Shown here: in pieces, positions 43,997 to 44,073 of the stretch
Numbering within the stretch: the stretch's first letter is position 1
Layout of the letters: each line of letters begins with the position of its first letter
Notes under the pieces: model-generated
The model's input: only the letters and a program-made list of their open reading frames with translations
What the model was told of the DNA's origin: nothing
The model's database searches: none
Program-made: the position numbers and the translations under genes
NCBI GenBank assembly: GCA_964597895.1
Contig: CAZQZS010000003.1
Coordinates: 4,315-68,314 of the forward strand
Reading direction: 5' to 3'
Length of the DNA stretch: 64,000 nucleotides
DNA from: an uncultured Candidatus Saccharibacteria bacterium
Lineage (GTDB): Bacteria > Patescibacteriota > Doudnabacteria > UBA920

Positions 43997-44073
43997 TGGT
44001 GGGTGTGCATGGACTCGAACCATGGACCACAAAGGTATAAGCTTTGCGCTCTAACCAACTGAGCTACACACCC
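43997..44073 (-). tRNA. tRNA-Ile with anticodon UAU
   Basis: Hand-folded: GGGTGTG-TA-GCTC-AGTTGGTTA-GAGC-G-CAAAG-CTTATAC-CTTTG-TGGTC-CATGG-TTCGAGT-CCATG-CACACCC-A-CCA. The body resembles bacterial tRNA-Ile. Confidence 0.8.

Follow-up and report, generated by a model that had tools for sequence, protein, structure and literature searches.

A genome-encoded tRNA-Ile(UAU) as a conserved gene of a Patescibacteria clade, probably reading AUA without lysidine

To read AUA as isoleucine and yet not misread AUG is a classic problem of decoding, and the bacterial textbook answer to it is lysidine, introduced by the essential enzyme TilS. In the classical system, which is found in sister Patescibacteria (L010, L020, L021, L026, L037 and others) and does the same job of reading AUA as Ile, the gene of tRNA-Ile2 carries CAT and C34 is enzymatically converted to lysidine. 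The stretch of 64,000 nucleotides analysed here (hereafter the window), from an uncultured member of the Patescibacteria (CPR), harbors a tRNA gene with T34 and hence an encoded UAU anticodon. This raises the question whether the gene is a working tRNA-Ile, whether it reads AUA on its own, and how widely the same solution is shared among related genomes.

The gene lies on the minus strand at positions 43997-44073, is 77 nt long and encodes its CCA end. ARAGORN called exactly this interval as tRNA-Ile with anticodon (tat), and Infernal with the Rfam tRNA family (RF00005, gathering score 29) recovered 44000-44073 on the same strand with 72.6 bits (E = 5.9e-14) over the full model (1-71). In RNA sense the sequence reads GGGTGTGTAGCTCAGTTGGTTAGAGCGCAAAGCTTATACCTTTGTGGTCCATGGTTCGAGTCCATGCACACCCACCA; it forms a perfect cloverleaf of -23.4 kcal/mol, with an acceptor stem GGGTGTG/CACACCC and the discriminator A73, and its anticodon loop reads CTTATAC on the minus strand. 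The anticodon TAT, or UAU in the RNA, occupies 44037-44039 (tRNA position 35 according to ARAGORN, in agreement with direct reading) and pairs with the codon AUA. When 5,426 complete E. coli genomes were searched (12 records evenly sampled from 5,414 ranked matches, E ≤ 0.01), matches fell at a median of three places per genome and, because all the matches listed lie under genes annotated tRNA-Ile (75-76% identity), the body of the tRNA can be considered Ile-type. The isoleucine identity features A73 and U12-A23 are both present in the alignment of 15 sequences presented below. A preliminary description of this locus had given the same coordinates, the loop CTTATAC with a UAU anticodon, a canonical cloverleaf and an Ile-like body, and all of these were borne out, the minus strand being added here; ARAGORN and Rfam agreed on the tRNA, its fold and its TAT.

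The neighbourhood of the gene is conserved. Its upstream neighbour is gyrA (44290-46758, minus strand), matched by tblastn in 80 loci at 54-86% identity and kept in synteny, and downstream lies rsmI (42901-43566, minus strand), coding for the 16S rRNA C1402 2'-O-methyltransferase (TIGR00096, 230.7 bits), likewise syntenic. Between the tRNA and rsmI there is a small ORF of 89 aa (43566-43835, minus strand), which yielded no NCBIfam or Pfam match and has an orthologous ORF in the same place in L001. The gene content of the window is that of a dense housekeeping region, with rpoBC, dnaA-dnaN-recF, polA, uvrB, ruvABC, gyrA, infB, tyrS and rpsA. The GyrA sequences nearest to that of the window belong to Patescibacteria/CPR metagenome-assembled genomes (L001-L006, 86-71% identity), one of them labelled Doudnabacteria, while those of 74 further Patescibacteria loci show about 54-64% identity. 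All six closest relatives possess the tRNA(tat), located between gyrA and rsmI in L001-L004 and L006, and after gyrA in L005, where no rsmI was matched downstream. The order common to the window and its relatives is rpsA-MBL hydrolase-gyrA-tRNA-Ile(UAU)-rsmI-yebC-ruvC-tyrS-PBP1A, within which L004 and L006 have the tRNA in inverted orientation; the slot after gyrA is thus kept in seven genomes, down to a GyrA identity of 71%. The tRNA itself is 88-96% identical between the window and L001-L004 and L006, and about 76% identical to that of L005. A tRNA(tat) was also detected in eight more distant loci (L018, L043, L045, L051, L060, L066, L075 and L079).

An alignment of the 15 UAU sequences (the window, L001-L006 and the eight distant Patescibacteria loci) was used to evaluate the fold. 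Every one of its 315 stem pair cells holds a standard pair, and compensatory changes on both sides were found at 13 of the 21 stem pairs; the covariation score was 0.606 against 0.134 ± 0.024 in shuffled alignments, with none of 500 shuffles reaching the real value, and at most 0.107 when the partners were slid. Columns 33-38 (CTTATA, in RNA CUUAUA) are invariant in 15/15 homologues, and none carries a CAT anticodon. Because the pairing, the covariation and the invariant loop extend across 15 sequences, a pseudogene, a private mutation and an assembly error are ruled out, and both the structure and the anticodon of this tRNA are under purifying selection. The gene can accordingly be regarded as a core gene that a Patescibacteria clade has inherited vertically, residing in the gyrA/rsmI slot. 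The proposal that a genuine tRNA-Ile with genome-encoded UAU, a minority type among bacteria, is at hand here, and not a pseudogene, is therefore sustained. Of the earlier framing as a minority-lineage trait, the part concerning a UAU type that would read AUA without lysidine stands, whereas the restriction to a few lineages was too narrow, the gene being clade-wide and common across Patescibacteria.

The use of AUA, which the preliminary description had proposed to inspect, agrees with such a role. The window ORFs with a length of 150 aa or more contain 1298 Ile codons, of which 192 are AUA (14.8%; 11.3 per 1000 codons). None of these is in rpoB and one is in rpoC, a scarcity that fits the expectation for codons served by a minor tRNA. 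To evaluate the meaning of the codon, 81 GyrA sequences were aligned in a codon-aware manner, and the majority residue of each column was taken from the non-AUA codons. Of the 222 gyrA AUA codons of UAU lineages, 137 stood in columns with an I majority, 28 each in L and V columns and 3 in M columns, so that I/L/V columns hold 193/222 of them, and the profile was the same in tilS-carrying lineages. The AUA share of gyrA Ile codons amounted to 21% in UAU lineages vs. 14% in tilS lineages. AUA is thus used in UAU genomes, where it means Ile.

If this tRNA has taken over the reading of AUA, the lysidine system should be missing from the same genomes. None of the 10 tRNAs in the 64-kb window has a CAT anticodon, and no CAT tRNA was detected in the L001-L006 loci; the window contains no PP-loop ORF, and a TilS HMM built from 14 Patescibacteria TilS sequences matched neither the window nor any of the UAU loci at E ≤ 10, tilS being likewise not found in the L001-L006 loci. 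Candidate TilS proteins were present in 14 related loci, and NCBIfam TIGR02432 confirmed 4/4 of those tested with 150-199 bits (cut-off 93.6). The usual place of tilS is rpsA-(cytidylate-kinase-like gene)-tilS-ftsH, beside MBL-gyrA, and three loci of tilS lineages (L020, L021 and L041) also carry a CAT tRNA; that of L020, the one compared, shares 88-90% identity with E. coli genes annotated tRNA-Ile and is hence a classical tRNA-Ile2.

The ftsH locus allows the two systems to be compared directly. Among 23 ftsH-bearing loci, tilS alone was found in 13 (L010, L012, L017, L019-L021, L025, L026, L029, L030, L033, L035 and L037, with tilS beside ftsH), the tRNA(tat) alone in eight (the distant UAU loci listed above, with the tRNA downstream of ftsH), neither in two and both in none. 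The tRNA is directly adjacent to ftsH in 7/8 of these UAU loci and about 1.1 kb apart in L018; ftsH and rpsA abut or lie within about 250 nt of each other in 3/8, the others having unrelated ORFs between the two. In one of them, L066, a TruD-family pseudouridine synthase (PF01142, 208 bits; 4214-5617, minus strand) occupies the ftsH-rpsA gap, which elsewhere is the place of tilS. A one-sided Fisher test calculated by hand gave 45/490314 = 9e-5, a value to be read with the loci forming only about three groups on the GyrA tree. On that neighbour-joining tree the UAU state is found in the window clade (7/7), in L018, and in a group of L043, L045, L051, L060, L066, L075 and L079, and since it forms only about three groups, few independent tilS/UAU events are represented. 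At the ftsH locus of related Patescibacteria, tilS and the UAU tRNA are mutually exclusive. The same tree places L076 (JBAZQV010000029.1), labelled as an Aenigmatarchaeota archaeon and carrying a bacterial gyrA, inside the Patescibacteria UAU group, and it is probably a mis-binned contig.

A replicate in metagenomes (JGI/ENA contigs, retrieved by a pattern scan) comprised 80 UAU-tRNA loci and 488 kb, with 0 TilS matches. In six of these loci ftsH is directly followed by the tRNA(tat), and four of the six (L110, L117, L140 and L143) are informative as UAU-only loci, with at least 5.8 kb upstream and no tilS. Together with the eight loci above, tilS is missing in 12/12 informative Patescibacteria loci with the UAU tRNA beside ftsH, and in 0/160 loci did TilS and tRNA(tat) occur together. 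No locus of the window's gyrA-tRNA-rsmI type was among those returned by the scan. Five metagenome loci (L093, L094, L097, L135 and L162) hold TAT and CAT tRNAs along with Lys-UUU, Arg-UCU and Leu-UAA in phage-like arrays and, because both TAT and CAT occur in these arrays, the metagenomic UAU tRNAs are of mixed origin. The window contains no ftsH locus and the UAU tRNA of its clade sits at gyrA instead, so that the argument from ftsH synteny does not apply directly to this clade. Judging from the relatives, and with 64 kb of the genome seen, it is nevertheless fairly likely that the window genome has lost tilS and tRNA-Ile2(CAU).

The provenance of the UAU gene is less apparent from its sequence. 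Pairwise tRNA identities of 56-78% do not discriminate between a C34U change of Ile2 and a G34U change of Ile1, and the window tRNA is no nearer to one or the other Ile type than to the window's tRNA-Val(UAC). CAT and TAT genes each adjoin a tRNA-Val(GAC) near ftsH in different lineages; their positional orthology is unproven, because order and orientation differ.

The intact gene is embedded in a nested arrangement that is private to the window genome. Upstream of it lies a decayed 5' half of the tRNA (positions 1-37; 44163-44200, minus strand), identified by repeat search and blastn-short, which ends at the anticodon TAT, has its first 19 nt in common with the intact gene and was not found in L001-L006 with blastn-short. 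Downstream, the repeat search revealed a decayed 3' half, running from the anticodon TAT to CCA (43936-43978, minus strand), 72% identical to the intact gene and sharing with it the exact 12-nt core CCTTTGTGGTCC (blastn-short). The intact tRNA is therefore nested between two half-copies whose break falls exactly at the anticodon, with TAT retained in each. The 184-nt insert consists of a unique spacer of 89 nt, the intact gene and a further 18 nt. The spacer (44074-44162, minus strand), by its sequence probably a pre-tRNA leader, contains the GC hairpin GGCGCCGGTGGGCGCC and has no second copy in the window or in any locus examined. A 23-nt inverted repeat (arms 43985-44007 and 44069-44091, 87% complementary by repeat search), which also occurs only in the window genome, lengthens the acceptor stem by about 16 bp into leader and trailer, and the resulting duplex reaches -24 kcal/mol vs. 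-0.7 to -14 in 14 relatives.

Broken stems and lost loops, the marks of a pseudogene, are seen in the half-copies and not in the intact gene. The half-copies were also considered as exons of an intron-containing or split tRNA; ARAGORN called none, with or without its intron option or at a lowered threshold, and the joined halves reach a cloverleaf of -2.4 vs. -23.4 kcal/mol for the intact gene. Because they form no tRNA when joined, this possibility was rejected. The insert was likewise rejected as a mobile element, with no second copy and no terminal inverted repeats except the extended acceptor stem. The arrangement is most readily explained if the ancestral gene underwent a local duplication or insertion at its anticodon, likely followed by decay of the disrupted copy.

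With regard to expression, a promoter-like TTGCTC-17 nt-TATAAT, read by eye, is located just upstream of the 5' half-copy (44213-44241, minus strand), and directly after the gyrA stop the repeat search found a perfect, terminator-like 12-bp hairpin with A- and T-run flanks (44248-44284). A scan of 43500-44500 for consensus promoters and terminators called no site; the promoter-like sequence escaped it because its -35 box matches at 3/6 positions, and the hairpin because its loop is 13 nt long. A TATAAT box occurs just upstream of the tRNA in L001-L003, L005 and L006, while in the window it precedes the 5' half-copy, so that the intact gene probably has a leader of about 127 nt in its transcript, and its expression would depend on read-through.

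The interval between gyrA and the tRNA is variable in other members of the clade as well. In L001 (12841-14909) it holds 2.5 kb of accessory genes on the opposite strand, which by motif encode an HD-domain protein and a metalloprotease resembling archaemetzincin, and the gap looks like a rearrangement hotspot in the window's clade. Elsewhere in the window, nine other tRNAs (49469-52973 and 61243-63288) were called as Leu-UAA, Cys, Gly-GCC, Phe, Val-UAC, Leu-GAG, Arg-CCU, Ala-GGC and Ser-CGA; the Leu/Val/Phe/Gly and Cys/Leu groups are kept in L001 and L004, and the mechanically predicted ORFs at 51667-52514 overlap tRNAs and are probably spurious. In L077 (2178-2652) ARAGORN reported a 'tmRNA*' overlapping a tRNA-Ala(UGC), a call that may be false or may reflect a permuted tmRNA. 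The dnaA-dnaN-recF genes (31283-36000) lie within the lowest-GC part of the window (34.5-38%), and the cumulative GC skew falls until about 36 kb and begins to rise beyond about 46 kb; a replication origin is probably located near dnaA.

Once transcribed, this minor tRNA would be charged by IleRS, and its U34 would pair directly with the A in the codon AUA, with no need of TilS or of tRNA-Ile2(CAU), as in the Mycoplasma mobile and Bifidobacterium types. Such a scheme presupposes that the IleRS of the clade accepts a UAU anticodon, and AUG misreading would be kept low, as in the cases studied so far, by the weakness of the U:G pair, by tRNA-Met as a competitor and/or by the ribosome. In M. mobile U34 is unmodified, its IleRS takes UAU by means of an Arg that corresponds to E. 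coli Trp905, and its ribosome rejects AUG, which the E. coli ribosome does not (Taniguchi et al., 2013; PMC3575796). In the suppressor of a B. subtilis tilS deletion U34 likewise bears no modification, and the weakness of AUG binding is intrinsic (Kohrer et al., 2013; PMC3919564). The earlier statement that a UAU tRNA requires a modified U34 is consequently unsupported, both of these tRNAs working with an unmodified one.

No IleRS was found in the window or in the loci of its clade. The sole Patescibacteria IleRS among the loci fetched is that of L008 (17753-20728, minus strand), from a lineage other than the window's clade, whose locus bears ftsH and neither tilS nor the UAU tRNA; it is of type 2 (archaeal/eukaryote), with a PF19302 (DUF5915/ARD3) C-terminus and without the zinc domain of the type-1 enzyme of M. 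mobile. Since the tilS-less Bifidobacterium and Neorickettsia also possess an IleRS of the eukaryote type (Taniguchi et al., 2013), a reasonable hypothesis by analogy is that a type-2 IleRS tolerates UAU and hence that tilS can be lost. In view of the conserved slot, the covariation and the meaning of AUA as Ile, the gene is almost certainly a functional AUA decoder, and neither a pseudogene nor an error nor a gene of phage origin, and it is quite probably the sole one, tilS having been lost. Taken as a whole, the reading of a functional tRNA-Ile(UAU), kept as a core gene and serving the lysidine-independent reading of AUA, would have a probability of roughly 0.8.

Outside the Bacteria, eukaryotic cytosolic tRNA-Ile(UAU) and those of the archaea Nanoarchaeum and Korarchaeum are charged by a type-2 IleRS, and the eukaryotic tRNA carries pseudouridine at positions 34 and 36 and has an intron. 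Among bacteria, the tRNA-Ile2(UAU) of M. mobile resembles the present one in its encoded TAT, Ile body, reduced genome and use of AUA as Ile, and also in working without TilS, which here is a matter of inference; it differs in belonging to another phylum, in relying on a bacterial type-1 IleRS with a Trp-to-Arg change at the wobble-contacting site, and in its anticodon loop, that of the window tRNA ending in C38 (Taniguchi et al., 2013). In Bifidobacterium and Neorickettsia a UAU tRNA is combined with a type-2 IleRS, the combination that L008 suggests for Patescibacteria, although they are individual genera, while the Patescibacteria case concerns whole class-level lineages (Taniguchi et al., 2013). 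Lactobacillus casei and L. plantarum, Cyanothece PCC 7424 and Ferrimonas encode a UAU tRNA as here and have kept the lysidine system (Taniguchi et al., 2013). The B. subtilis suppressor likewise places UAU on an Ile body and reads AUA well and AUG weakly; it is, however, a laboratory mutation of the major tRNA-Ile1 (G34U), whereas the window gene is a conserved natural one (Kohrer et al., 2013).

Such double systems bear on the alternative in which the window genome is at a redundant stage, with a functional UAU tRNA and, elsewhere, tilS and tRNA-Ile2(CAU), AUA being read by two tRNAs. Such a double reading has been proposed for Lactobacillus casei, Cyanothece and Ferrimonas (Taniguchi et al., 2013), the 64 kb seen leave room for it, and the clade keeps its tRNA away from the ftsH locus. 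It is nonetheless unlikely when set against the lack of any locus with both TilS and tRNA(tat) among 160, the missing CAT tRNA among the window's 10 tRNAs and in L001-L006, and the consistent absence of tilS from the 12 informative loci at ftsH. The existence of both systems in some bacteria also overturns the rule, put forward in the preliminary description, that tilS and a CAU tRNA in the same genome would make the UAU gene a pseudogene (Taniguchi et al., 2013), and the covariation indicates selection regardless. The UAU gene as a pseudogene, as a recent private C-to-T change of a CAU gene, or as a sequencing or assembly error would fit the single base that separates CAT from TAT and the two true pseudo-fragments adjoining it; with TAT invariant in 15 independent assemblies, compensatory changes in the stems and a cloverleaf of -23.4 kcal/mol, the chance of this is minute.

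That a phage or an integrative element introduced the gene as an accessory tRNA is very improbable too. Phages do carry UAU tRNAs, commonly so in their tRNA arrays, as those of L093, L094, L097 and L135 appear to be, and the tRNA fragments flanking the gene and the variable gyrA-tRNA gap with its accessory genes in L001 would suit an element. This origin was rejected on the synteny in seven genomes, with gyrA and rsmI as neighbours and the same post-gyrA slot maintained down to a GyrA identity of 71%, and on the tRNA identity of 88-96% to L001-L004 and L006 (about 76% to L005); no phage record matched above 79% and none matched the flanks, no integrase or phage gene lies nearby, and the spacer is unique. 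A reassignment of the codon, with AUA read as Met or another residue and the tRNA not charged with Ile, would have a parallel in the many mitochondria in which AUA means Met. It is hardly credible here, with AUA in Ile/Leu/Val columns in 193 of 222 cases and in Met columns in 3, the same profile in tilS-positive lineages, and a tRNA body matching tRNA-Ile. A functional tRNA-Ile(UAU) that reads AUA without lysidine hence remains our preferred reading.

This kind of tRNA is already described, and the window gene is a new instance of a known mechanism. The count of tilS-less bacteria with a tRNA-Ile(TAT) stood at nine species from three clades in 2013, when metagenomes had already yielded hundreds of TAT tDNAs without an assignment (Taniguchi et al., 2013). 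No report linking CPR/Patescibacteria to the loss of tilS or lysidine, or to UAU, was found in the literature searched, outside of which most subscription journals lie. To the earlier exceptions, a handful of species, the window adds a CPR clade with the UAU tRNA as a conserved core gene. Beyond this clade, the comparison suggests the same switch in large parts of the Patescibacteria, at a locus that can be recognised. We lean, if only slightly, towards a joint reading in which several deep Patescibacteria lineages, including the window's clade, dropped TilS and lysidine for tRNA-Ile(UAU), with the swap visible at one locus as rpsA-(cmk)-tilS-ftsH in some lineages and rpsA-ftsH-tRNA-Ile(UAU) in others, and an archaeal/eukaryote-like type-2 IleRS may have made the swap easy.

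If this is true, the nine species in three clades would become a phylum-scale exception, and TilS would be dispensable far more often than thought, which bears on its standing as a 'bacteria-wide' antibiotic target and on its use as a marker gene. For annotation pipelines, Ile(UAU) is to be expected in CPR genomes, and the UAU lineages would offer natural material on how IleRS and the ribosome handle an A/G-ambiguous U34.
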